Source: Candidatus Enterocloster excrementipullorum (GTDB lineage: Bacteria > Bacillota > Clostridia > Lachnospirales > Lachnospiraceae). From it: a stretch of 17,405 nucleotides of DNA. The stretch covers positions 1-17,405 of the forward strand of contig DWWT01000046.1 of the NCBI GenBank assembly GCA_019119575.1, in the 5' to 3' direction. Below, one piece after another: positions 1 through 12,115 of the stretch. Made by a program: the position numbers and the translations under genes. The notes beneath the pieces were generated by a model, which worked only from the letters and a program-made list of their open reading frames with translations, was not told the DNA's origin and searched no databases. The stretch's first letter is position 1. Every line of letters starts with the position of its first letter.

Positions 1-43
1 GAACTTCCGCAAGGCTGCTGGATAAGGTTGTAGGGACAGCCTG

Positions 44-90
44 AAAAAAGTTTCCCTCATTTCTTCTCGCAAGGGAAAAAATGAGGGAAA
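44..90 (-). terminator. Candidate rho-independent terminator (long hairpin plus T6 on the minus strand)
   Basis: TTTCCCTCATTT (51-62) pairs with AAATGAGGGAAA (79-90). An inner stem TTCTC/GGGAA (64-68/73-77) closes on a GCAA loop (69-72). The A6 run at 44-49 reads as T6 immediately 3' of the hairpin on the minus strand. There is no T-run after it on the plus strand. Confidence 0.45.
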
Positions 91-128
91 AGGGCCAAAA
101 CGAAGTGGCGAAAACGCTGTAAACGCCA

Positions 129-260
129 GTGTTTTCAAGGGGTATAGAAATTTTAACTGAGAAATGGAAATTTGAAAAATATAGAGTAATCCAAGACCGT
201 TTGTATCAAAGCGATTTTGACCGTCTGGTCAGCGAAGCGGAAAAGGAGAAAAAAACGTAA
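129..260 (+). pseudogene. Short 3' remnant resembling the C-terminus of a RhuM-family (prophage/island-associated) protein
   Basis: The frame ending at TAA 258-260 reads ...EKWKFEKYRVIQDRLYQSDFDRLVSEAEKEKKT*. From memory, the FEKYR-x-IQDR-x-x-SDFD pattern is the conserved tail of RhuM-family proteins. The frame is closed upstream by TAA at 120-122, and only a GTG (129) is available as a start. No intact N-terminal part is present. Confidence 0.25.
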
Positions 261-288
261 CAGTTCAAGACGGCGGGAAAACAGGGGC

Positions 289-322
289 AAAAATAGGCGT
301 TAAGCTTGCTTATAAGCACGCC
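289..322 (-). terminator. Candidate intrinsic terminator downstream of echF (possibly bidirectional)
   Basis: GGCGT (296-300) pairs with ACGCC (318-322) around the palindrome GCTTATAAGC. On the minus strand the hairpin is followed by TATTTTTG (complement of 288-295). It is nested in a longer imperfect inverted repeat, GAAAACAGGGGCAAA (276-290) / TTTGCTCCTGTTTTC (323-337). It lies 93 nt beyond the echF stop. Confidence 0.5.
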
Positions 323-414
323 TTTGCTCCTGTTTTCTCATCAGCCGGGAGGTATCAACGTTCAAGCAATGCTGTCCTCTAAGCGGAAGAGAGCGTACAG
401 GCCCCTCGTTCTCC

Positions 415-987
415 TTACTCCCCGCTCATCGTCAGACACTTCTTAGGACAGGAGGCCGCGCACAGCCCGCAGCCTATGCAGTTCTCTTCATCCAGCGTCC
501 AGAACCTGGCTGCGCGGTCCACGGTGATGGCCTCCTGGGGACATTTTTTGGCGCACAGGGTGCAGTAGACACACTTGGACGCATCATTGACGGGATGGCC
601 GCCTGCAGCCGGGGCAGTATCGGCAGCCGCCGGGACTTCTTTCGGCGTCACAAACGTCTCCGAACGCTTCTCCGCCTGGGGCTCCGTATATCCAGGCCGC
701 ATAAATAAGCACTTTTTGGGGCAGACGTTCACGCAGCTGCCGCACTGGACGCAGTCAAAGCGGTTGATGGTCCAGGTGCCCTGCGCACGGTCCACAGCCA
801 GGGCGCCCGGCGGGCAGGAGCGGGCGCAGAGGCCGCAGCTTATACAGTCCTCAATCTTGATTTCGATATGGCCCCGCATGCGCTCGGGAAAATGGGCGGG
901 CTCTGCGGGGTAATTTTTTGTGACGGGTTTGGAAAACAGGTTTTTTATGGCCCTGTGGCCGTATGGGAAAAATTTTATCGCTGCCAT
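415..987 (-). CDS. echF: Ech hydrogenase iron-sulfur subunit: NuoI/HycF-like 2x[4Fe-4S] domain fused to a second 2x[4Fe-4S] ferredoxin domain
   Basis: There are four CxxCxxCxxxCP motifs: CISCGLCARSCP, CVQCGSCVNVCP, CVYCTLCAKKCP and CIGCGLCAASCP. ATG 987 has GAGAGGTGA 6 nt upstream. An alternative GTG 996 overlaps the echE stop (GTGA). The stop is TAA at 415-417. It is the last gene of the operon. Confidence 0.85.
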   Translation of the reverse strand: MAAIKFFPYGHRAIKNLFSKPVTKNYPAEPAHFPERMRGHIEIKIEDCISCGLCARSCPPGALAVDRAQGTWTINRFDCVQCGSCVNVCPKKCLFMRPGYTEPQAEKRSETFVTPKEVPAAADTAPAAGGHPVNDASKCVYCTLCAKKCPQEAITVDRAARFWTLDEENCIGCGLCAASCPKKCLTMSGE

Positions 988-992
988 GTGTC

Positions 993-2072
993 TCACCTCT
1001 CCGTACAGCTGATGCAGGGGTCGATTGTCAGAATGAGAAGGGGTACGTCCGCAAGCTGGCAGCCCTTCAGCATATCCAGCATGGGCGGAATATTGCTGGT
1101 AGTGGGGGTGCGCAGGCGGAAGCGGTCGATGAATTTGGTTCCATTTCCCTTCACATAGTAGATGGCTTCCCCCCGGGGCTGCTCGATCCGCATGAAATAT
1201 TCTCCCTTGGGGAAGCCTTTCACGGGAACGCTTATGGCACCATCGGGAATCTGGCCGATGGCCTGACGGATCAGGGCGAAGGACTGGCGGATCTCCGCCA
1301 GACGCACCTCGCAGCGGGCGTAGGAATCACCCTCGGTGCGGACAATGGGCTTCACGTCCAGATGCGGGTAGGCCCCGTAGCCAAGCAGCCGGGCATCGTA
1401 AGGGATGCCGCTGGCCCGGAGCATGGGGCCCACGGCTCCGGCAAGAACCGCCTGGCCGGGCTCTAAGACACCCAGGCCCTTTAGGCGGGAGTGTACCGTG
1501 TATTCTCCGAGAAATGTCTCTTCAATGACCGCGAAGTCCTTTTCCATCTGCCGGATGGTGGCGTCCAGGCTGTCCAGCATGGTCTTATCCATATCCTTTA
1601 ACACACCGCCGATGCAGTTGACGGAGAAGATGATCCGGCCGCCGGTGGTCATGTCAAACATGTCCAGAATCTTTTCTCTGAGACGCCAGCTCTCCATGAA
1701 CAGGCTCTCAAAACCCATGGCGTCCGCCAAAAGCCCCAGCCAGAGCAGGTGGCTGTGAACCCGGCTCATCTCGATCCAGATGGTGCGCAGGTACTTGGCC
1801 CGCTCCGGGATGTCGATGCCCATGATGTGCTCTACGCTCTCGCAGTAGCCCATGCCGTGGCCGCAGCTGCAGATGCCGCAGACCCGCTCGGCGATGTATA
1901 CATATTCTTTAAAATCCTTGGTTTCCACCAGCTTTTCGAGGCCTCTGTGCACAAAGCCGATGTTGGGCACAGCGCCCACCACGGTCTCATCCTCCAAAAT
2001 CAAATCCAAATGAACCGGCTCGGGCAGAACCGGGTGCTGGGGACCAAAAGGAACAATGCTTCTCTTTGCCAT
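993..2072 (-). CDS. echE: [NiFe]-hydrogenase large (catalytic) subunit, group 4 / Ech-type (NuoD-like)
   Basis: It has the N-terminal Ni-Fe ligand motif RVCGICSCGH and ends exactly at the C-terminal motif DPCISCTER, with no cleavable extension. The true start is MAKRSIVPFGPQHP at ATG 2072, with GGGGTGA upstream. The ORF-track N-terminal extension to 2183 overlaps echD. Confidence 0.95.
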   Translation of the reverse strand: MAKRSIVPFGPQHPVLPEPVHLDLILEDETVVGAVPNIGFVHRGLEKLVETKDFKEYVYIAERVCGICSCGHGMGYCESVEHIMGIDIPERAKYLRTIWIEMSRVHSHLLWLGLLADAMGFESLFMESWRLREKILDMFDMTTGGRIIFSVNCIGGVLKDMDKTMLDSLDATIRQMEKDFAVIEETFLGEYTVHSRLKGLGVLEPGQAVLAGAVGPMLRASGIPYDARLLGYGAYPHLDVKPIVRTEGDSYARCEVRLAEIRQSFALIRQAIGQIPDGAISVPVKGFPKGEYFMRIEQPRGEAIYYVKGNGTKFIDRFRLRTPTTSNIPPMLDMLKGCQLADVPLLILTIDPCISCTER

Positions 2073-2076
2073 GTGC

Positions 2077-2424
2077 TCACCCCTTTTCCTTAAACGGCGC
2101 TTCCCGGTCAATCCGGTAAAGCTTGTCTCTGTAGTCCTGGGTAATGTTCTCGATGGGAACCCCGAAGAGCTCCGCCACCTCATTTTCCTGCATGAAGGCG
2201 CAGGGATAAATCTGGGTGATGCTGGAGACTTTTTCGTCCGTGGCGGTCACCAGCCGCAGGGTTTCCATGTCGTAGCCCCGGCAGAAGGAGTAGCTGAGTT
2301 CATAGCCATCCGGCAGGCGGGCGGCGCAGATCTGAACCAGCCTGCGCTCCTCCATTTTGAAGCGTATCACCGTGGGAAGAAACTGATCCATGGTGATCGG
2401 AGTGATTTCGTTTTTACCTTCCAT
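2077..2424 (-). CDS. echD: Small NuoC-like (30 kDa-family) hydrogenase subunit
   Basis: A 115-aa protein with an ENEVAELFGVPIEN segment resembling the NuoC/HycE N-domain E-x-x-FG motif. Its position between the small and large subunits matches echABCDEF order. An AGGAGG lies upstream, and it overlaps the echC 3' end by 11 nt. Confidence 0.7.
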   Translation of the reverse strand: MEGKNEITPITMDQFLPTVIRFKMEERRLVQICAARLPDGYELSYSFCRGYDMETLRLVTATDEKVSSITQIYPCAFMQENEVAELFGVPIENITQDYRDKLYRIDREAPFKEKG

Positions 2425-2872
2425 CTGTCTTGCTCCTCCTTTTCTCCTGGCGGTAGGCCTCCTGCTTTTCCTTTAAAAGGGCCAGAGCCTTGACGACCCC
2501 GTCGATGATGGACTCGGGCCTGGCCGCGCAGCCGGGCACATAGATGTCCACGGGAATCACAGTATCTACGCCGCCCTTGATATTGTAGCAATCCTTAAAT
2601 ACCCCGCCGGTGCAGGCGCAGATTCCCACTGCGACAACCACCTTGGGATTGGGCATCTGGCTGTAAATCTGCTTAACCACCTTTTCGCTCTGGCTGTTGA
2701 CGCCTCCGGTAATCAGAAGGATATCCGCCTAGAAGGGGTCGCCGGTGTTGATAATCCCGAATCGTTCAATGTCGTAAGAGGGCATGGTGCAGGCCAGCAC
2801 CTCAATGTCGCATCCGTTGCAGCTGCTGGCATCATAGTGCAGCAGCCACGGAGATTTCGCAAGCTTTCCCAT
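2414..2872 (-). pseudogene. echC: [NiFe]-hydrogenase small subunit (NuoB/HycG/CooL-like) interrupted by one in-frame TAG at codon 48 (2729-2731)
   Basis: A continuous 153-codon frame reads MGKLAKSPWLLHYDASSCNGCDIEVLACTMPSYDIERFGIINTGDPF*ADILLITGGVNSQSEKVVKQIYSQMPNPKVVVAVGICACTGGVF...VPGCAARPE. All four proximal-cluster Cys are present, but two lie on each side of the stop. The ATG at 2872 sits 11 nt after the echB stop. The ORF track shows only 2414-2680. Confidence 0.8.
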
Positions 2873-2883
2873 TGTTCTCCCTC

Positions 2884-3747
2884 CTATTTAATCAGCATTA
2901 AAATGAGAAGATTCAGTCCTCCGGCAAGGAGGGTCACAACCCAGCAGCTCCCCAGCATGGTCTTCCACTTTACCCGGGCGCTCACATTGTCCCAGAGGAT
3001 TTCCAGAAAATAGAAAATCAGGCATACGGCCACGGCAATGGGCCAGCTGATGGGATTTTTGTTTACGATGAAGAGTCCCACAATGCCCAGCAGAAGAACC
3101 TTTTCGTAATACTCAGCGATTTCCATAATGGCCAGGGTGGGGCCGGCCATCTCCGTGGTGAGACCCTTTACCATCTCCTGGTGCGCATGGTGGCTGGTGG
3201 ACAAATCAAAAGGCGATTTGCGCAGCTTGATGGCCGTGATGAAGAGAAAACCCAGGAGCATTCCCGGCATGGCAACGACCGGGCTTAAAGGGGAGGCGAC
3301 AATCTCATTGACCACGAAGGAGCCGGTAGCGAGGTAAAAGCCTACGGCGATGAGCAGAGTCAAAGGCTCATAGGCCATCATCTGCATCATCTCCCGGCTG
3401 GCGCCCATAGTGGCGAAGGGCGAGGAATCGCTGGAGGCTGCCATGATGAGGAACATGTCACCGGTGGACAGGATGAACAGGCACATGAGAATGTCTGCCC
3501 CGCCAAAAAGCATGGAGCCCGCCACGGCCAAAAAGACAAGATAGCTCAAATTTAAGAGGAGCTGCACATTGTTTACTGCAATCATCTGTTTGGAAAATAA
3601 TTTCCCCAGGTCATAAAAGGGCTGGAGCAGAGGCGGTCCCACCCGTCCCTGCATCCGGGCGCTGATAACGCGGTCAGCGCCTTCCAAAAGGCCGCCCGCA
3701 AAGGGGGCAAGCAGCAAGTAGGCAATCACGGAAATTACGGAATTCAT
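2884..3747 (-). CDS. echB: Ech hydrogenase integral membrane subunit (NuoH/HycD/CooK-like)
   Basis: A 287-aa polytopic membrane protein. The N-terminal pattern LLAPFAGGLLEGADRVISARMQGRVGPPLLQPFYDLGKLF is typical of the NuoH/HycD family. AGGAGGTG lies upstream, and there is an ATGA overlap with the echA stop. Its own stop is TAG (2884-2886). Confidence 0.85.
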   Translation of the reverse strand: MNSVISVIAYLLLAPFAGGLLEGADRVISARMQGRVGPPLLQPFYDLGKLFSKQMIAVNNVQLLLNLSYLVFLAVAGSMLFGGADILMCLFILSTGDMFLIMAASSDSSPFATMGASREMMQMMAYEPLTLLIAVGFYLATGSFVVNEIVASPLSPVVAMPGMLLGFLFITAIKLRKSPFDLSTSHHAHQEMVKGLTTEMAGPTLAIMEIAEYYEKVLLLGIVGLFIVNKNPISWPIAVAVCLIFYFLEILWDNVSARVKWKTMLGSCWVVTLLAGGLNLLILMLIK

Positions 3748-5642
3748 ATGGCACCTCCTATAATCACACAGAATAGAACAACCAGCACGCCTGCGGAGAT
3801 AATCTCCGACGGGCGGCGCAGATGGCGCATGCCGAACTCAAAGCGCAGATACCAGTTGGTGAGGTAGAGGTGTTCGGGCAGGCCGTAGCTGTTGGTGAAA
3901 TAGGTGTTGTCTCCCTCGTTGACGCCTCCCATGTAGATGGGCACGTAGTCCCGGTGGGCGGCCTTTGTCACGAGGAACATAGCGGCGGGAACTACAATGA
4001 CGGAGGCCAGCATGACGGCCATTGTGTTCAGCACATTGATGGAGAGAACCTCGTGGGACTCCCCGAAAATCTGCAGGATAATCGGGTTGACAATCCGGGT
4101 GGCAAGCAATGGGAAGAGCAGGCAGAGGCAGAGCATGCTCCCTGCGTGGAGGAACATGGAAACGTATTGGTCTGCCCGGGTCACGTCCCGGACCTCCTCC
4201 TTGGTGTGGTGCATGGAGATGAGCTTTGCCAGCCACTTGGTCCAGTAAAACATGGTAGAGGCGCTTCCGTATGCCAGGAAAAGCACCAGTATGTAATTGC
4301 CGGAATCCACAAATGCCTTCAGAGCCACCCATTTGGAGATCAGCATGCCGAAGGGAGCCAGATACATGCCCGCGATGCCGATGCCCATGATATAGGTCAG
4401 CTTGGGAAGGCGCAGCAGCATGCCGTGCATGTTCTCAATATCCCGGGAGCCCAGACAGTTCTCCGTGGCGCCCACGGCCTGAAACAGCATGGATTTGCTC
4501 ACGGAGTGGAAAATCATGAGCAGCACGGCGCCCCAGATGGTCTCCTCCATGCCGATGCCGGCGCAGGCCACAATAAGCCCCAGATTGGACACGGTGGAGA
4601 AGGCCAGAACCTTTTTGCCGTCATTCTGGGCAATGGCCATTAGGCTGGCGGCGATGAAAGTAAAGCCGCCGATGAAAGATACTATGGTTCCCACCAGGTT
4701 GCCGTTTAGGGCCGGGGAAAGACGGATTAAAAGATAAACGCCGGCCTTTACCATGGTGGCGCTGTGGAGCAGGGCGCTGGATGGCGTGGGGGCTACCATG
4801 GCGCCCAGGAGCCATGAGGAAAAGGGAAGCTGGGCGGATTTCGTCAGTCCCGCGAGGGAAAGACAGGCCAGGGGCAGAAGGCTTCCGGCGGCCACCACCT
4901 GGTCAAGCTCCACTGTGCCCAGATCCAGGGCGGAGAGCGCGATGGCCACAGCGAATCCAAGACCGCCGAGGAGATTCATCCAGAGAGCCCGGAAGCTGTT
5001 GGTAACGGCTTCGTCTGTCCGCGTGTATCCGATGAGGAGGAAGGAAATGACACTGGTAATCTCCCAGAAAAAGTACATCCATATCAGGTTGGCGGAAAGC
5101 ACCAGGCCGAACATGGCGGCCAGGAAGAAAAACAGCATGGAGAAGAAAAAGCCGCTCCGGTCTGTGAATTCCGTGTGGTGATGGTGGTATTCCTTCATAT
5201 AACCCACGGCATAGATGCAGATGAGGCCGCCCACGAAAGCAATAATTATGCACATGAGCATGGCCAAGCAGTCAATCTGCATGTGGGCCGCTTCGGGAAA
5301 TTCCGTGCGGCTTTCCATCCAGGCCACCAGACAGGTCTGGACGACGGACAGCAGGGCGATGGGGTATTTTTTGTGGCGGACACTTAAAAATACGATGAGA
5401 CCCATTAAAAGAAATTCACCGGCTAACATCGCGTGATCTGCGGCTTCCGTGCGGACATACAGGAGAATTGTCTGTCCGCCCTGGTTCAGCCAGGCACCCA
5501 GAAAGAAAAGGGTAAAAGCCATTAGAATGCCGGCCGCGGCGTAGACAGCTTTTCCGCGCATCTCGGCGGACGGAATAAAGGGGGCGGCTGCGGCCATGAT
5601 GGTCGGAAGAGCCATTACTATCCAGATCGATTCCATTGTCAT
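3744..5642 (-). CDS. echA: Ech hydrogenase antiporter-like membrane subunit (NuoL/MrpA/HycC-like)
   Basis: A 632-aa, highly hydrophobic multi-TM protein with NuoL-type segments (GYMxxxxxxxxxxxxFF, WLLGAMVAPTPSSALLHSATMVKAGVYLL). AAGGAGG lies 7 nt upstream of ATG 5642. It is the first gene of the operon. Confidence 0.85.
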   Translation of the reverse strand: MTMESIWIVMALPTIMAAAAPFIPSAEMRGKAVYAAAGILMAFTLFFLGAWLNQGGQTILLYVRTEAADHAMLAGEFLLMGLIVFLSVRHKKYPIALLSVVQTCLVAWMESRTEFPEAAHMQIDCLAMLMCIIIAFVGGLICIYAVGYMKEYHHHHTEFTDRSGFFFSMLFFFLAAMFGLVLSANLIWMYFFWEITSVISFLLIGYTRTDEAVTNSFRALWMNLLGGLGFAVAIALSALDLGTVELDQVVAAGSLLPLACLSLAGLTKSAQLPFSSWLLGAMVAPTPSSALLHSATMVKAGVYLLIRLSPALNGNLVGTIVSFIGGFTFIAASLMAIAQNDGKKVLAFSTVSNLGLIVACAGIGMEETIWGAVLLMIFHSVSKSMLFQAVGATENCLGSRDIENMHGMLLRLPKLTYIMGIGIAGMYLAPFGMLISKWVALKAFVDSGNYILVLFLAYGSASTMFYWTKWLAKLISMHHTKEEVRDVTRADQYVSMFLHAGSMLCLCLLFPLLATRIVNPIILQIFGESHEVLSINVLNTMAVMLASVIVVPAAMFLVTKAAHRDYVPIYMGGVNEGDNTYFTNSYGLPEHLYLTNWYLRFEFGMRHLRRPSEIISAGVLVVLFCVIIGGAI

Positions 5643-5790: not shown

Positions 5791-5869
5791 ACTTGGGGTT
5801 ATTATGTTTGGACAGACACCCATTGTCTGAACGATTGCAATTTTATACCGGATGGAGCAGAAAGAAGCC

Positions 5870-6310
5870 ATGCACGAGCTTGCGGTCACAGAACATATAC
5901 TGGATATTGCCTTGAAGGCTGCGAAGGAACAGAATGCGGTCCGCATCCGGGCCATTCGCCTGCGCATGGGGCCATTTGCAGGGATTGTCCCCGAGTGCGT
6001 GCAGATGTATCTGGACGTGCTGGCGAAAGGAACAATGGCAGAGGGCGCGCAGGTGGAGGCCCGCACGGCTCCTCTGCGGGTGCTGTGCCGGGAATGCGGC
6101 CGGGAGAGTGAGATTACAAGAGAGCATATTGCCTGCCCGTTCTGCGGAAGCCTGCGCTTAAAGACTCTTTCCGGCAGGGAATTTATGGTAGAAAGCCTGG
6201 AGGTGGATGTAGATGGAGATAAAGGTTCTGCATCAGGTGATGGAGTGGAATCAGGATGTAAGCGCCAAGGTGCGGAAAACACTGGCGGACCGCAAAGTAT
6301 GCCTGATTAA
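5870..6310 (+). CDS. hypA: Hydrogenase nickel-insertion metallochaperone HypA, with an atypical 3' extension overlapping hypB
   Basis: MHELAV... begins at ATG 5870, and the N-terminal Met-His-Glu nickel site requires this start rather than 5852. The zinc site is CRECG...CPFCG. The conserved body ends around ...REFMVESLEVD, but the frame stays open to TAA 6308-6310. Confidence 0.88.
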   Translation: MHELAVTEHILDIALKAAKEQNAVRIRAIRLRMGPFAGIVPECVQMYLDVLAKGTMAEGAQVEARTAPLRVLCRECGRESEITREHIACPFCGSLRLKTLSGREFMVESLEVDVDGDKGSASGDGVESGCKRQGAENTGGPQSMPD

Positions 6311-6869
6311 TGTGATGGGAAGTCCGGGGACGGGGAAAACCAGTCTTATTACTGCCTTAATTAAGCGGCTTGGGGAAGAGTTTGCCATCGGCGTGATTGA
6401 GGGGGATATTGCCGGCCAGATCGACGCGGAGAAAATAGCTGCCCTGAATATCCCGGCGGTCCAGCTCAATACGGACGGAGCCTGCCATATTGAGGCTATG
6501 AGCATTGAACATATTCTCCCTCATTTTGACCTGGACAAGCTGGATGTGCTTTTTGTGGAAAATATCGGCAATCTTGTCTGCCCGGCGGAGTTCGATATCG
6601 GGGAAAATTTCCGAATCACAATTCTCAGCATTCCGGAGGGAGATGATAAGGTAAAAAAGTATCCCCTGATGTTTACGGACACCAACTGTCTGGTGCTGAA
6701 TAAGTATGATATGCTGCCGTATTTTGATTTTGATGTGGAGAGCGTGAAGCGGGATTACCGGGGGGTGAACCCGGAGGGCCCCCTCTTCGGAGTCAGCGCA
6801 AAGACCGGAGAAGGAATGGATGCGCTTGCGGAGCGGATCGGAGGGGAAATCCGGGCCGCGATTCGGTGA
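6213..6869 (+). CDS. hypB: Hydrogenase nickel incorporation GTPase HypB
   Basis: It has the P-loop GSPGTGKTS, the GACHIEA (Cys-His metal site) motif, ENIGNLVCPAEFD and NKYD. A strong GGAGGTG lies 7 nt upstream of the ATG. It has no N-terminal CxxCGC motif or His-rich stretch. Confidence 0.95.
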   Translation: MEIKVLHQVMEWNQDVSAKVRKTLADRKVCLINVMGSPGTGKTSLITALIKRLGEEFAIGVIEGDIAGQIDAEKIAALNIPAVQLNTDGACHIEAMSIEHILPHFDLDKLDVLFVENIGNLVCPAEFDIGENFRITILSIPEGDDKVKKYPLMFTDTNCLVLNKYDMLPYFDFDVESVKRDYRGVNPEGPLFGVSAKTGEGMDALAERIGGEIRAAIR

Positions 6870-9268
6870 TGGAACATTCGGTGATGAAAGGAAGAATGTC
6901 CGGGCCGGGAGCAGGCCGGCAGTGCGTCCGGGTAAAGGTTTCCGGTATTGTCCAGGGCGTCGGGATGCGCCCGTTTCTGCACCGGCTGGCCCGAAGTTTG
7001 CAGGTCACGGGCTGGGCCAGAAACACCTTGGAAGGGGTGGAAATGGTGCTGGAAGGGGATACGGAGAGTTTGTCCTCTTTTGTCCGGGAAGTGCGGGAAA
7101 ATCCGCCGCCTCTGGCTGTGGTGGAAGCGGTGGAGCTGATGGCGGATTCACCGGAACGCCGGACCGGGCCGGAAGAGCGGATCCAAAATTTTGAGACATT
7201 TGAGATTGTGGACAGCAGCAGTGAATTGCCAGGAAATACGCTGATTGCTCCCGATATGGCTCCCTGCCCGGACTGCGTAAAAGAGCTCTTCAGCCCGTCA
7301 GACCGCCGGTTCCGGTATCCGTTTATCAACTGTACCAATTGCGGCCCCCGCTTTACCATTATAAAGGCTCTTCCCTATGACAGGGCCCGCACCTCGATGG
7401 AGAATTTCCCCATGTGTCCGGCCTGCCGGGAGGAATATGGGGACATTGAGAACCGGCGCTATCACGCACAGCCGGACTGCTGCCCGGTGTGCGGGCCTGC
7501 CGTATACTTTCTGGACAGTGCCGGGGAGCGGGCACCGGGAGATCCCTTCCGCCTGGCTCAGGAGATGCTCCTTGCGGGCGGTATCCTGGCCGTGAAGGGA
7601 ATCGGCGGGATTCATCTGGCCTGCGATGCGGGAAATGCGGGCGCAGTGGAGCGGCTGCGGCGGATAAAGCACAGGGAGGCAAAACCGCTGGCTGTCATGT
7701 GCGCTTCCTTCAGGGAGGCGGAGCGGTTCTGCCGGATCAGCGGGGCGGAGAGACGGATTTTGGAGAGCCCGAGACGTCCCATTGTCCTGTGCGAAAAGAA
7801 GCAGCCGGACTCCTTGCGTGAGCTTAGCGGGAACAGCCGCCTGGGCGTGATGCTTCCCTACACTCCCCTTCATGTGCTGCTGTTAGACGGGGCATTCGGC
7901 GGGCCGAAAACGCTGGTGATGACCAGCGCCAATGCGCCGGACTGTCCGGTGCTTACGGAAAATGAGGAAGCCCTTTCCCTGCTGAAGGGGCAGATTGACG
8001 GCTTTCTGCTCCACAACCGGCCCATCGAAAACCGGTGCGATGATTCCCTGGTGATGGAGTGGCAGGGGAGGGAATATTTTTTCCGCCGCAGCCGGGGTTA
8101 TGCGCCGCAGCCTGTGCCGCTGGAACAGGAGGGTACGGGGATTCTGGCGCTGGGAGCGCAGCAGAAAGCGTCTTTTGCTCTGGGGCAGGGGAAGAAAGCG
8201 TTTTTAAGCCAGCACATCGGGGATTTGGACAGTCTGGAAGCCCAGGACTTCTTTCGGGAAAATATTTCGCGGTTTGCCGGCCTGTTTCACATTCGGCCAG
8301 GCTTTCTTGCCTGCGATCTGCATCCGGGATATGAATCCACAAAAATAGGGGAGGAGATGGCCGGGCAGAAGGGGATCCCCCTCCTAAAGATACAGCACCA
8401 TTGGGCCCACATGGCTGCCTGCATGGCAGATAACCGTCTGGAGGGAGATGCCTTCGGCATTATCTGGGACGGCACAGGGATGGGCACAGACGGGACAATC
8501 TGGGGGGCAGAATGTTTGTCCGGAAATTATGCGGGATTTGAGCGGCGGGGAAGCATCCGCCCCATTCTTCTTCCAGGCGGGGAGGAGGCGATCCGGCGGA
8601 TTGGCCGGATTGGTTTTTCGCTTTTGTGGGATCTGGGACGGGGTACGCCGTTTTTGGAGGAAAATGCAGAGGCAGCGCCTCTGGAGGGAGGCATACAGGA
8701 ACGGCGGGCGCTGACAGCTATGCTGGAAAAACGTATTTCCTGCGTGGAAGCCAGCAGCATGGGCCGGCTCTTTGACGGGGTGGACGCTTTGCTTGAAGGG
8801 CGCGCCCGGGCCCGGTATGAGGGAGAGGGAGCGGTGCTTCTGGAGGCCCTCGGAGAGGCCGGAAGGGAGGCAGCCTGCCCGTATCCCCTGGCCTTTTATG
8901 AGGAGGCCGGGGTACGCTGCTTTGATACGCGGCCTATGATAAAACAGATTGTTTTAGATAAACAGGCCCGTGTGCCGTCCGCAGATATTGCCCGGCGGTT
9001 TATGGAGACTCTGGCGGCCATGGCGCTGGAACAGTGCCTGCATCTGAACACCGGGAAACATCCGGTGGTCCTGTCGGGAGGCGTCTTCCAGAATCATTTT
9101 CTCCTGGAGCGTGTACGGACGCTTCTGGAGGAGGCGGGATTTGCTGTTTTCTGCCACCGCAGGGTGGCGCCAAATGACCAGGGAATCAGCCTGGGGCAGT
9201 TGGCGATTGCGCAAAGGAGTGAAGAATATCGTGTGTTTGGCAGTGCCGTTAAAGATAACAAAAATTGA
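6869..9268 (+). CDS. hypF: Carbamoyltransferase HypF
   Basis: It has an acylphosphatase-like N-terminus (VRVKVSGIVQGVGMRPF) and two zinc-finger pairs (CPDC...CTNCGPRF, CPAC...CPVCGP). These are followed by YrdC-like (GIGGIHLACDA) and Kae1-like domains. The ATG overlaps the hypB TGA by 1 nt, and a GTG at 6866 is an alternative start. Confidence 0.95.
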   Translation: MEHSVMKGRMSGPGAGRQCVRVKVSGIVQGVGMRPFLHRLARSLQVTGWARNTLEGVEMVLEGDTESLSSFVREVRENPPPLAVVEAVELMADSPERRTGPEERIQNFETFEIVDSSSELPGNTLIAPDMAPCPDCVKELFSPSDRRFRYPFINCTNCGPRFTIIKALPYDRARTSMENFPMCPACREEYGDIENRRYHAQPDCCPVCGPAVYFLDSAGERAPGDPFRLAQEMLLAGGILAVKGIGGIHLACDAGNAGAVERLRRIKHREAKPLAVMCASFREAERFCRISGAERRILESPRRPIVLCEKKQPDSLRELSGNSRLGVMLPYTPLHVLLLDGAFGGPKTLVMTSANAPDCPVLTENEEALSLLKGQIDGFLLHNRPIENRCDDSLVMEWQGREYFFRRSRGYAPQPVPLEQEGTGILALGAQQKASFALGQGKKAFLSQHIGDLDSLEAQDFFRENISRFAGLFHIRPGFLACDLHPGYESTKIGEEMAGQKGIPLLKIQHHWAHMAACMADNRLEGDAFGIIWDGTGMGTDGTIWGAECLSGNYAGFERRGSIRPILLPGGEEAIRRIGRIGFSLLWDLGRGTPFLEENAEAAPLEGGIQERRALTAMLEKRISCVEASSMGRLFDGVDALLEGRARARYEGEGAVLLEALGEAGREAACPYPLAFYEEAGVRCFDTRPMIKQIVLDKQARVPSADIARRFMETLAAMALEQCLHLNTGKHPVVLSGGVFQNHFLLERVRTLLEEAGFAVFCHRRVAPNDQGISLGQLAIAQRSEEYRVFGSAVKDNKN

Positions 9269-9452
9269 AGGAAAATCCGCAGTGGGAGAGGCGGGAGGTC
9301 TGTCTCAGAATGTGCGGGTGGATTTTATACCGGATCTGTCGGTGGGAGACTACGTGATGGTTCACGCCGGCTTTGCCATAGAAAAAATGTCGGAGAAGGA
9401 GGCTCTGGAGGGCTTGGAGTTCCTTGCAGAGGTGCTGGATGAGCAGGCGTAA
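9231..9452 (+). CDS. hypC: Hydrogenase assembly chaperone HypC
   Basis: A GTG start gives (M)CLAVPLKITKIEG..., the invariant N-terminal Cys of the HypC/HupF family. It is 73 aa, has AAAGGAG upstream, and overlaps the hypF 3' end by 38 nt. Confidence 0.88.
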   Translation: MCLAVPLKITKIEGKSAVGEAGGLSQNVRVDFIPDLSVGDYVMVHAGFAIEKMSEKEALEGLEFLAEVLDEQA

Positions 9453-10599
9453 AGGGGCGGCCGCGGCAGAGGAAGAGGAAATGCGGAAGCGCGGGGCAGG
9501 GCGCCTGTCCGCAGAACATGTGCCCGTAGAGCCTGGGGCGCTTCTGGAGGAGATCCGGCGTATGGCCCGATCCCTGGGACAGGTGCAGCTGATGGAAATC
9601 TGCGGCACGCACACTATGGCCATCGCAAGGGCCGGCCTTAAATCGCTGCTTCCTGAGAACATCCGTCTGATTTCCGGGCCCGGCTGCCCGGTCTGCGTGA
9701 CGCCGGCGGGGGCAGTGGACGAGCTGCTGCGCATCAGCAGTATTCCGGGCGTCATCATGGCCAGCTATGGGGATCTGCTCCGGGTGCCCGGCTCGCGCCG
9801 CGGGGACAGCCTGCTGCGCCGGATGGCCCAGGGAGCGGATGTGCGGATGGTGTATTCTCCCATAGATGCCCTGGAAATGGCCGGCAAACATCCGGACCGG
9901 CAGGTAGTGTTTGCCGGCGTTGGCTTTGAAACCACAGCACCTGGGACTGCAGCCTGTCTGATGGAGGCCAGAGAGCGCCGGATGAGTAATTTTTCCGTGC
10001 TGAGCCTGTTGAAGACAACGGAGCCGGCCGTCCGAGCCCTTGTGGACGCGCCGCAGATGCGGGAGTGCAGGATTGACGGCTTTTTGTGTCCGGGACATGT
10101 GGCGGTGATTACCGGGGCGGACAGCTTTGCGTTTCTGCCGGAGGAGTACGGGCTGCCCGCTGTGGTGAGCGGGTTTGAGCCCGAGGATCTGGTGGTCTCT
10201 GTGTATCTTTTAGTAAAAATGCTGGCGGAGGGCCGGCCGGCGCTGGTAAATGAATACGCCCGTCTGGTTCGCGGGAGTGGAAACCCGGCGGCCAGGAAGG
10301 CGGTGGATGCGGTGTTTGCCCCCGGTGGGAGCCTTTGGCGGGGGCTGGGGGAGATATCGGAGAGCGGTCTCGCGATCCGGGAGGAATTTGCCGCCTGGGA
10401 TGCCGCCAGACAGTATGGATTCTGCCCGGATGCCGGGGCGGAGGCAGCGGGCTGCCGCTGCGGTGATGTGATCCGCGGACTGCTTGCCCCCCAGGAATGC
10501 CCCCTTTTTGGACTGGCCTGCCTGCCGGAGGATCCGGTGGGGCCCTGTATGGTGTCCGGGGAGGGGGCCTGCGCGGCGGCGTACCGGTATCGGGAGTGA
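9439..10599 (+). CDS. hypD: Hydrogenase Fe(CN)2CO-assembly scaffold HypD
   Basis: Motifs present: MEICGTHTM, GPGCPVCVTP, GFETTAP, CPGHV, and C-terminal GPCMVSGEGACAAAY. ATG 9439 has GAGGTG upstream and a 14-nt overlap with hypC. The start is uncertain; alternatives are TTG 9424 and ATG 9481. Confidence 0.88.
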   Translation: MSRRKGAAAAEEEEMRKRGAGRLSAEHVPVEPGALLEEIRRMARSLGQVQLMEICGTHTMAIARAGLKSLLPENIRLISGPGCPVCVTPAGAVDELLRISSIPGVIMASYGDLLRVPGSRRGDSLLRRMAQGADVRMVYSPIDALEMAGKHPDRQVVFAGVGFETTAPGTAACLMEARERRMSNFSVLSLLKTTEPAVRALVDAPQMRECRIDGFLCPGHVAVITGADSFAFLPEEYGLPAVVSGFEPEDLVVSVYLLVKMLAEGRPALVNEYARLVRGSGNPAARKAVDAVFAPGGSLWRGLGEISESGLAIREEFAAWDAARQYGFCPDAGAEAAGCRCGDVIRGLLAPQECPLFGLACLPEDPVGPCMVSGEGACAAAYRYRE

Positions 10600-10652
10600 C
10601 GGCCTGCACGGGATCGTGCGGCGGAGGGCCGGCAGACAGCAGGAGGTGTGGT

Positions 10653-11651
10653 ATGGATTCTGTGATTACAATGGATTATGGAAGCGGAGGGACAAAGACC
10701 TCCGAGCTGATTGATTCAATTCTTGTTCCGGCTTTTTCCAATCCGGCCCTGAATGCGCTGGGGGACGGGGCTGTGCTGCCGGGAGGGGAGCGCCTTGTAT
10801 TTTCCACGGACAGTTTCGTGGTATCTCCCTGGAAATTCCCGGGGGGAGATATCGGGAAGCTGGCGGTCTGCGGCACGGTGAATGATGTGTGTATGGCCGG
10901 CGGAGAGCCGAAATATTTGAGTCTTTCCCTGATTCTGGAGGAAGGCTTTGCTGTGGAGAATCTGCGGCAGATTGTATCTTCCGCGGCAGAGACAGCAGCG
11001 CGCTGCGGGGTGCAGATTGTCACAGGGGACACCAAGGTGGTGGAGAGGGGAAAAGGCGACCAGGTCTATGTCAACACCTCCGGCATTGGAGTTCTGCGGG
11101 CATCCGGGCTGGGGCGGGAGGCTGTCCGGCCCGGGGACGCCGTAGTTGTCAGCGGGCCGGTGGGATGTCACGGGGCTGCGGTCATGATGGCCCGAGGGGA
11201 GCTGCCCTGTGAAGGGGAGCTTCTGAGCGACTGTATGCCCCTGCATGCGCTCAGCCGGGCGCTCATAGAGGTCGGAGGGCTTCGCATCATGCGGGACCCC
11301 ACCCGGGGAGGCCTGGCGACCACGCTCAACGAATTTGTGGAGGGACTGCCGTTTACCATTGAGATTTCCGAGGCAGCAGTGCCCGTCACACCCGGCGTTC
11401 GGATGGCCTGTGAACTTCTGGGATTGGATCCCCTGTACTGTGCCTGCGAGGGGAGGATCGTGGCAGTGATTGCTCCGGAACGGGCGGAGGCTGCCCTGGC
11501 CGCTCTGCGGGCCCTGCCTGGCGGGGAGGGCGCGGCCCAGATCGGCCGGGTGACGGAGCAGAGGCCCGGAAAAGTGGTGCTTCGCACCGGGCTTGGCGGA
11601 AGCCGGCTTTTGGGGAAGCTTGCGGGCGGGCAGCTTCCGAGGATATGCTGA
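10653..11651 (+). CDS. hypE: Carbamoyl dehydratase HypE
   Basis: A PurM-like fold sequence ending in the invariant C-terminal PRIC. ATG 10653 is preceded by AGGAGG (10641-10646). The ORF-track extension back to 10497 is Gly/Arg-rich and overlaps hypD. Confidence 0.93.
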   Translation: MDSVITMDYGSGGTKTSELIDSILVPAFSNPALNALGDGAVLPGGERLVFSTDSFVVSPWKFPGGDIGKLAVCGTVNDVCMAGGEPKYLSLSLILEEGFAVENLRQIVSSAAETAARCGVQIVTGDTKVVERGKGDQVYVNTSGIGVLRASGLGREAVRPGDAVVVSGPVGCHGAAVMMARGELPCEGELLSDCMPLHALSRALIEVGGLRIMRDPTRGGLATTLNEFVEGLPFTIEISEAAVPVTPGVRMACELLGLDPLYCACEGRIVAVIAPERAEAALAALRALPGGEGAAQIGRVTEQRPGKVVLRTGLGGSRLLGKLAGGQLPRIC

Positions 11652-11701: not shown

Positions 11702-12115
11702 ATGGATTTGGAAGCATACAGAAAGAATTTTAATGAGCAGAGCGCATTTTTAAAGCTGCTCGGCGCGGAGGTGACGGTTTTAAAGGAGGGGTATGCGGAG
11801 GCAGAGCTGACGGTGAAGCCGCAGCTTGTGAATATATCCCGAACCGTGCATGGAGGCGTTATCTTTTCGCTGGCGGATTCCACGGTGGGCGCTGCCTCGA
11901 AGAGCTATGGATTCGGGAGCGTGACGCTGGAGGGAAAGATGAATTATCTGCGGCCCATAAGCGGGGAGTCCCAGCGGATCCGGGCAGTGGCCCAGAGCGT
12001 TCACGCCGGAAGAAAGACCGGGGTGTATGAGTGCCGGGTGTATGACGGAGAAGGGAATCTGGCGGCCATTGGGCAGTATACGATGTTTATGTTTGAGGAT
12101 CGGGTGGCAGAATAG
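11702..12115 (+). CDS. PaaI-family hotdog-fold acyl-CoA thioesterase
   Basis: It has the ...TVHGGVIFSLADSTVGAA... segment typical of PaaI/YbdB thioesterases and is about 137 aa. GGGAGGA lies 6 nt before ATG 11702, with alternative starts at 11681 and 11696. The stop is TAG. It starts 50 nt after hypE with no terminator in between. Confidence 0.78.
   Translation: MDLEAYRKNFNEQSAFLKLLGAEVTVLKEGYAEAELTVKPQLVNISRTVHGGVIFSLADSTVGAASKSYGFGSVTLEGKMNYLRPISGESQRIRAVAQSVHAGRKTGVYECRVYDGEGNLAAIGQYTMFMFEDRVAE

Follow-up and report, generated by a model that had tools for sequence, protein, structure and literature searches.

Does an in-frame TAG codon that divides a hydrogenase gene within an otherwise intact operon represent an error in the sequence, a codon that is read as an amino acid, or a genuine loss of function? 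This question was raised by a 17,405 bp stretch of DNA (the window) from Candidatus Enterocloster excrementipullorum, in which echC, encoding the small subunit of an Ech-type [NiFe] hydrogenase, is interrupted by a TAG at codon 48. With a probability of roughly 0.85, we consider this TAG to be a real and derived C-to-T nonsense allele of an ancestral CAG (Gln48), which segregates at minority frequency in the chicken-gut Lachnospiraceae species matching Candidatus Enterocloster excrementipullorum. The base change, its polarity and its distribution in the population were read directly from related sequences, as was the intactness of the remaining genes.

Identity of echC and position of the internal stop codon

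Translation of the minus strand of the window from ATG 2872 to TAA 2414 gave a frame of 153 codons that is broken once, by the TAG at 2731..2729, exactly as described in the initial annotation of this DNA. The region between 2681 and 2883 had been reported there as empty of open reading frames (ORFs); this held at a threshold of 60 amino acids (aa) but not below it, as a 47-aa ORF (2729..2872) was then listed. An 88-aa ORF starting with GTG (2414..2680) was also present in the ORF list. The interrupted gene consists of the following features:

2414..2872, minus strand: echC, NuoB/PF01058-type small subunit of an Ech-type (group 4) [NiFe] hydrogenase; interrupted here
2732..2872, minus strand: 5′ part of echC, 47 codons; the predicted product holds C18 and C21 only (two of the four cluster ligands)
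2729..2731, minus strand: internal stop of echC, TAG, codon 48; derived from CAG (Gln) via a C-to-T change at window position 2731
2414..2728, minus strand: untranslated remainder of echC, codons 49–152 and the stop, with C85 and C115; still perfectly conserved

When Gln was restored at codon 48, EchC scored 136.4 bits against the curated NuoB subfamily model NF005012 (cut-off 116). The C-terminal part alone matched PF01058 (positions 41–127/128) with 85.8 bits (cut-off 27), and the 47-aa N-terminal piece had no Pfam match. Full-length alignments of EchC were obtained with two relatives of solved structure, MbhJ (Pyrococcus membrane-bound hydrogenase; 6cfw_J, E = 5e-42) and HycG (formate hydrogenlyase; 7z0s_G). 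In the MbhJ alignment, C18, C21, C85 and C115 aligned with the CNGC, GAC and PGC cysteines. This agrees with the earlier assignment of two cluster ligands to each side of the stop: the four proximal [4Fe-4S] cysteine ligands are split into C18 and C21 (SCNGC) before it and C85 (GICACTGG) and C115 (VPGCA) after it.

The internal TAG is located on the His/Gln of the conserved motif (S/N/D)Px(H/Q)AD(I/V)xL(I/V)TG. The sequence across codon 48 is FGIINTGDPF-X-ADILLITGGVNSQSEK, where X is the position of the TAG; the corresponding region is GSPRHADILLVTG in MbhJ, SPRHADILLFTG in HycG and SPRQADLII in NdhK, the residue being His in MbhJ and HycG and Gln in NdhK. The initial annotation had placed an SPR(Q/H)AD motif at this position, and it was borne out by 80 genome relatives, 73 of which had His (CAT in 54, CAC in 19) and seven Gln (CAG); none had a stop. 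Most relatives read GNPKHAD here, whereas this lineage has Gln in a GDPFQAD variant.

EchC shares with the MbhJ and HycG small subunits of group 4 the NuoB/PF01058 fold, the CxxC...C...C ligands of the proximal [4Fe-4S] cluster and the motif GxP(R/K/F)(H/Q)ADILL(I/V)TG, as well as a six-gene echABCDEF-like operon with hyp genes adjoining; it differs in that the frame of the window is broken at the motif His/Gln. The locus thus belongs to the EchC/NuoB small-subunit family by its profile matches, its ligands and its operon context, but the allele in the window is a broken copy, the reading frame being interrupted by TAG in the window and in six related contigs.

Distribution of TAG and CAG among conspecifics and relatives

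The initial annotation had pointed out that TAG is one transition away from CAG and had proposed that sister genomes be inspected for the latter. CAG was the allele found both in conspecifics and in the sister species, in which (at 85% DNA identity) the site reads TTT CAG and echC is intact with Gln. An apparently split echC in the sister species (88-aa P0152, on L100) was traced to a scaffold gap of Ns, and L100 reads CAG. The closest database proteins (97%, 91%, 89% and 83–84% identity) all contained GDPF-Q-ADILLITGG. A search of the JGI metagenome collection with a 25-mer in which C or T was allowed returned 16 loci, one of them clearly of the same species, and all 16 read CAG; a 44-mer had no matches in that collection. 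The idea that TAG might be conserved across relatives can therefore be abandoned, since it was found in 0/80 genome relatives and 0/16 metagenome loci. The same species was not found among the GTDB representative genomes, where the best match had 83% protein identity.

Many separate metagenome assemblies contained the 47-aa truncated product (P0136): the cluster table lists it on 25 contigs, it occupies 31 index blocks, and 23 contigs carrying it were read. The matching 88-aa call from the C-terminal part (P0122) was on 22 contigs. An exact look-up of the identical protein with Gln48 (P0121) returned 379 contigs and 539 index blocks. The TAG allele is regarded as real because it recurs in independent assemblies; a stop at a single site is not a statistical claim. 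The initial annotation had listed a very recent nonsense mutation in an otherwise intact locus as one possibility. This was right in kind, but not as a one-off event, given the roughly 25 contigs and at least three haplotype backgrounds on which the allele was found.

Haplotypes and recombination

Six contigs with TAG (L082–L087), ten with the intact allele (L090–L099) and L081 were compared with the window, to which they had 98.0–100% identity over 11.7 kb. In the resulting alignment of 18 sequences, codon 48 was TAG in seven, including the window, and CAG in 11. The whole of echC in the window was identical to that of the CAG strain L097 except for this base.

The TAG carriers did not form one clade. 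TAG occurred on at least three haplotype backgrounds, and haplotypes differed at up to 66 sites per 11.7 kb. The window, L083, L084 and L087 represented one haplotype, the nearest CAG relative of which was L097 (1.5 differences per kb), and L085 (TAG) was a mosaic. L086 (TAG) belonged to a different haplotype group and had a 132-bp in-frame echA deletion in common with the CAG strain L094. L082 (TAG) carried a third haplotype; over the first 13.8 kb, only the TAG/CAG base separated it from L095, a CAG contig of the same sample series.

Pairs of single nucleotide polymorphisms (SNPs) with all four gametes made up 9% of pairs less than 100 bp apart, 21% at 100–300 bp and 39% at 300–1000 bp. The nearest informative SNPs that showed four gametes with the TAG site were at least 562 bp away. 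The two main haplotypes, A and C, were identical from 3493 to 2009 except for the TAG, and therefore a transfer of less than 1.5 kb would leave no other trace. Heavy recombination of this kind would suffice to explain how a TAG allele of single origin came to lie on several backgrounds.

Several observations weigh against a single-origin nonsense allele that is widespread in the species and null in its effect. L086 has five private SNPs, at 3030, 3022, 2982, 2567 and 2564, which lie to either side of the TAG and span no more than 470 bp (in echB two non-synonymous and one synonymous; in echC two synonymous). This cluster has the appearance of a tract acquired from a lineage that was not sampled, and it complicates a single-origin history of the TAG, as the shared tract would then have to be very short (<415 bp). 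The presence of TAG on several backgrounds, particularly that of L086, could instead reflect recurrent mutation. The clean frame downstream of the stop and the mostly synonymous private SNPs would also fit expression through suppression. Finally, the frequency of the TAG allele, at roughly 5–6% of contigs, may be that of one cohort and not of the whole species: the TAG contigs shown all fell in two neighbouring ENA series (ERZ272347xx–ERZ272348xx and ERZ273369xx), and contig counts are not counts of independent samples, as ENA submitters, Logan and NCBI may each have assembled the same runs.

Predicted effect of the stop and state of the remaining genes

Translation of the TAG allele would end after 47 residues, so that two of the four proximal [4Fe-4S] cysteines and the whole of the NuoB-fold core from beta2 onward would be lost. 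With truncation before beta2 and two ligands missing, no functional small subunit would be expected, and the Ech hydrogenase would be switched off in carriers; on this sequence evidence, Ech activity is most likely abolished in them. Genes downstream of echC may also suffer polarity, though echD has its own Shine-Dalgarno sequence. Rescue by a split protein or by re-initiation was considered and rejected: the only called downstream start, GTG 2680, omits residues 49–64, including the ADILLITGG strand, and no Shine-Dalgarno sequence was seen on inspection 3′ of the TAG.

Purifying selection on the ech genes is strong throughout the species: the ratio of non-synonymous to synonymous polymorphism (pN/pS) was 0.12 for echA, 0.10 for echB, 0.10 for echC, 0.14 for echD, 0.05 for echE and 0.25 for echF. 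Excluding the TAG itself, nine synonymous and three non-synonymous ech SNPs were private to TAG carriers, and the sole changes of this type in echC downstream of the stop were two synonymous SNPs, both in L086. Such low counts, which are also affected by recombination imports, do not suffice as evidence of ongoing selection on the interrupted gene. No decay following the TAG (a raised dN/dS, the ratio of non-synonymous to synonymous substitution, or more lesions) was seen in carriers, in a comparison that had low power owing to small numbers and to clustered SNPs that resemble recombination imports. No further nonsense or frameshift lesions were found in the ech or hyp genes of 16 clean sequences. 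Without secondary decay, the allele is therefore taken to be young relative to the mutation rate, an 'incipient' pseudogene. It would have to be young enough for nothing else to have decayed, and old or tolerated enough to have reached many samples and, via homologous recombination, several backgrounds. Such toleration could mean that Ech is dispensable, or that its loss is mildly advantageous, in this niche.

Two other lesions were found in related sequences. L081, a CAG contig present in two samples, has a 160-bp echC–echD deletion (window ~2272–2431; junction at L081:9684) between imperfect repeats GACA(G)ATGGAA, which fuses EchC in frame to approximately residue 54 of EchD (P0001, 211 aa). 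In the sister species, echA has a −1 frameshift between residues 250 and 267, which was the same in two contigs of different sample sets (L088:2586–2634 and L089:915–963). Together with the TAG allele, these two lesions suggest that Ech is dispensable in this clade.

Origin of the base change

The change in echC is CC(C>T)AGG, from TTCCAGG to TTCTAGG, and the mutated base is the inner C of a CCWGG site. At the Dcm site CCAGG, deamination of the inner 5-methylcytosine gives CTAGG amber codons, and a hotspot for amber mutations at CCAGG was reportedly described in lacI of E. coli by Coulondre et al. in 1978. The echC change resembles those hotspots in that CCAGG became CTAGG and a CAG (Gln) codon became amber. 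It differs in that no evidence of CCWGG methylation or of hypermutable sites was found here.

If this context were a hotspot, TAG could have arisen independently on each haplotype instead of being spread by recombination. We regard this as unlikely, although it is the strongest of the alternatives. Besides the exact sequence context and the lacI precedent, it would account for the presence of TAG on at least three backgrounds, one of them otherwise identical to CAG strains over 13.8 kb, and for the location of the L086 TAG inside a locally divergent tract. On the other side, the 57 other CCWGG sites showed no excess of polymorphism: 2/114 inner C/G positions at CCWGG varied, as against 190/6690 C/G positions elsewhere (Fisher p = 0.77). 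CTAGG appeared depleted about 10-fold in the window (two observed, 23.5 expected from dinucleotide shuffles), but this is attributable to a generic avoidance of CTAG. In the window together with 38 kb from conspecifics, CTAG ranked lowest of all tetranucleotides relative to expectation (observed/expected (O/E) 0.45), with CTAA/TTAG (0.53) and CGCG (0.59) next. Under a Markov expectation, O/E values in 38 kb of conspecific sequence were 1.09 for CCWGG, 1.27 for CTAGG and 1.20 for CTTGG, so that there was no skew of CCWGG/CTWGG beyond that avoidance. No methyltransferase gene was found in the window. A Dcm/CCWGG deamination hotspot is thus attractive but unsupported, and recombination is frequent enough to produce the observed pattern, with transfers between haplotypes A and C shorter than 1.5 kb being invisible. 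A recurrent origin would in any case concern where the allele came from and not its effect.

Read-through, suppression and recoding

Next to a nonsense mutation, the initial annotation had offered read-through, suppression or recoding of the TAG as a possible reading. This was not supported, as Gln48 was encoded by 379 contigs, the sister species has CAG, TAG serves as a normal stop at this locus, and no tRNA at this or 11 related loci and no stimulatory structure was found. The two TAG stops cited earlier as evidence against a global reassignment were both present, that of echB at 2886..2884, 11 nt upstream of the echC ATG, and that of the thioesterase gene at 12113–12115. Among the 17 genes of the window, ten end in TGA, five in TAA and two in TAG, and the TAG stops are kept in all strains. 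The base following the internal TAG is G, as it is after the stops of echB and the thioesterase gene.

Neither the window nor any of 11 related loci (8–20 kb) contained a tRNA, and no Rfam family matched the window. The 103 nt from the TAG onward had a minimum free energy (MFE) of −22 kcal/mol, as against a shuffle mean of −25.2 (z = +0.96), and thus gave no indication of a stimulatory RNA structure 3′ of the stop. Neither a second CAG/TAG polymorphism nor another in-frame TAG was present in the 11.7 kb across the 16 clean strains.

Background read-through of UAG in the presence of release factor 1 (RF1) is typically well under 1%. A leaky allele, in which near-cognate tRNA-Gln(CUG) occasionally reads UAG despite RF1 and in which the restored wild-type protein keeps Ech activity at a low level, is a somewhat weaker candidate than recurrent mutation, and is judged improbable. 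Residual activity of this kind would account for the toleration of the allele and for the clean state of the gene. In its favour, the ancestral codon was CAG and there is no decay 3′ of the stop, although a young allele would explain the absence of decay equally well. The lack of a 3′ structure and a TAG-G context that is identical to that of two ordinary stops both speak against read-through above the background rate. In E. coli, Gln is among the residues inserted at UAG by near-cognate tRNAs (PMC4333366), and low-level insertion of this type would regenerate wild-type EchC; nothing in the sequences suggests more than background. Leakiness would modify the explanation by a nonsense allele and not replace it.

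A stronger proposal is that TAG carriers are not null at all, Ech being kept functional either by an amber suppressor peculiar to these strains (such as a tRNA-CUA carried by a prophage or another mobile element) or by unusually efficient near-cognate insertion of Gln. This is considered very improbable. If true, suppression of TAG48 would explain a nonsense allele that is found on several haplotypes without decay. The EchC peptide FGIINTGDPFQADILLITGGVNSQSEK in samples containing only TAG would be informative: at near-normal levels it would support suppression, and its absence would support loss of function. A milder variant would be positive selection for the loss of Ech within a single host cohort.

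More improbable still is efficient decoding of TAG48 by a strain-specific suppressor tRNA (CUA) or other recoding system, with a functional hydrogenase as the result. The persistence of the allele on several backgrounds without further damage to the ech or hyp genes fits this proposal, but only indirectly. TAG was found at this codon in no relative, most conspecifics have CAG, and the gene directly upstream, echB, is itself ended by TAG. The in-frame TAG resembles programmed UAG decoding (pyrrolysine, suppressor tRNAs, and the reassignment of TAG to Gln in some phages and eukaryotes) in that it lies where Gln is expected. It differs in that the TAG is unconserved, neighbouring genes use TAG as a stop, and neither tRNA-CUA or pyl genes in the sequences examined nor a recoding signal were found; on these grounds, pyrrolysine, recoding and suppression are not supported.

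An error of sequencing, assembly or consensus, or a chimera of mixed strains, is the least credible explanation. In its favour, all data are metagenome assemblies, and the accession series to which the TAG contigs shown belong are only two and are related. Against it, the same base and the same truncated product recur on distinct haplotypes and in about 25 contigs of many assemblies, for which different assemblers and k-mer sizes were used and which are available from ENA, Logan and NCBI. L082 also agrees with haplotype C at all remaining sites, an outcome that random bubble merging would not give. The base-call error suggested initially can be set aside.

Organisation of the ech-hyp locus

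The other ech genes and the hyp genes of the window are as follows:

3744..5642, minus strand: echA, antiporter-like membrane subunit; intact in the window
2884..3747, minus strand: echB, NuoH-like membrane subunit; intact; stop TAG-G; exact match to HJC06378.1
2077..2424, minus strand: echD, NuoC-like; intact; 11-nt overlap of its start (ATG) with the 3′ end of echC; own AGGAGG upstream
993..2072, minus strand: echE, [NiFe] large subunit, NuoD-like; intact; exact match to HJC06376.1
415..987, minus strand: echF, polyferredoxin, NuoI-like; intact; 190-aa form with four CxxCxxCxxxCP motifs
5852–6310, plus strand: hypA, maturation gene; intact
6213–6869, plus strand: hypB, maturation gene; intact
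6869–9268, plus strand: hypF, maturation gene; intact
9231–9452, plus strand: hypC, maturation gene; intact
9439–10599, plus strand: hypD, maturation gene; intact
10653–11651, plus strand: hypE, maturation gene; intact

The operon context (antiporter-like, NuoH-like, NuoC-like, NuoD-like [NiFe] large and NuoI-like subunits) was established from Pfam annotations and an NCBIfam scan, and the EchE sequence contains the motifs RVCGICSCGH and DPCISCTER. As the initial annotation had maintained, the rest of the operon is intact, with no lesion in echA, echB, echD, echE or echF, and so are the six hyp genes, all of which had full-length Pfam matches. The hyp block (5852..11651, plus strand) is followed by a 4HBT thioesterase gene, the one with the TAG stop.

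The exact matches of EchE and EchB are proteins of the metagenome-assembled genome (MAG) of Candidatus Enterocloster excrementipullorum, which is a chicken-gut species named in PMC8035907. There is one accession between HJC06376 and HJC06378, although both echD and echC lie there, which points to the lack of an EchC protein entry for this MAG.

Some variation was noted elsewhere in the locus. The 132-bp in-frame deletion in echA (44 aa; window ~5176–5298) lies beside a 12-bp repeat in L086 and L094, and L098 has Ns at this place. The length of EchF differs by strain: it is 190 aa in the window, 132 aa in L093, L094 and L096 (−174 bp, in frame) and 187 aa in L091. This variation falls in the 3′ half of the gene (window 415–640) and is in effect the presence or absence of a whole extra ferredoxin-like domain. 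HypA matched the whole of the PF01155 model (1–112/112), followed by approximately 34 extra residues, and its gene overlaps hypB by 98 nt; several gene callers omitted hypA or called it in a different frame. The flanks of the ech-hyp block (beyond window 1–415 and from 12116 onwards) also vary among L082–L099. A RhuM-family gene 3′ of echF is either present or absent, and the thioesterase gene lies next to an AraC-type regulator in some cases and next to a peptidase S58 gene in others, the window among the latter.

Significance of the TAG allele

The TAG allele of echC is an ordinary loss-of-function variant of an already known kind, and neither a sequencing error nor a sign of an unusual genetic code. 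It shares with the segregating nonsense alleles and incipient pseudogenes of bacteria a derived stop that arose by a single base change, a minority frequency and an ancestral allele that is intact in most conspecifics, as well as the absence, as yet, of secondary decay and the occurrence of independent lesions in the same pathway. There is no difference in kind; what is somewhat unusual is that one allele is found on several haplotypes and in a strongly constrained gene set.

In annotation, echC of the window is best marked as a pseudogene allele within an otherwise standard Ech operon, with no joining of the two parts, no recoding and no correction of a supposed error. The finding has no bearing on the genetic code and points to no new mechanism. 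It may offer a small example of a gene being lost from a recombining gut commensal, and at least some strains of this chicken-gut Enterocloster species seem able to do without the group 4e Ech hydrogenase.

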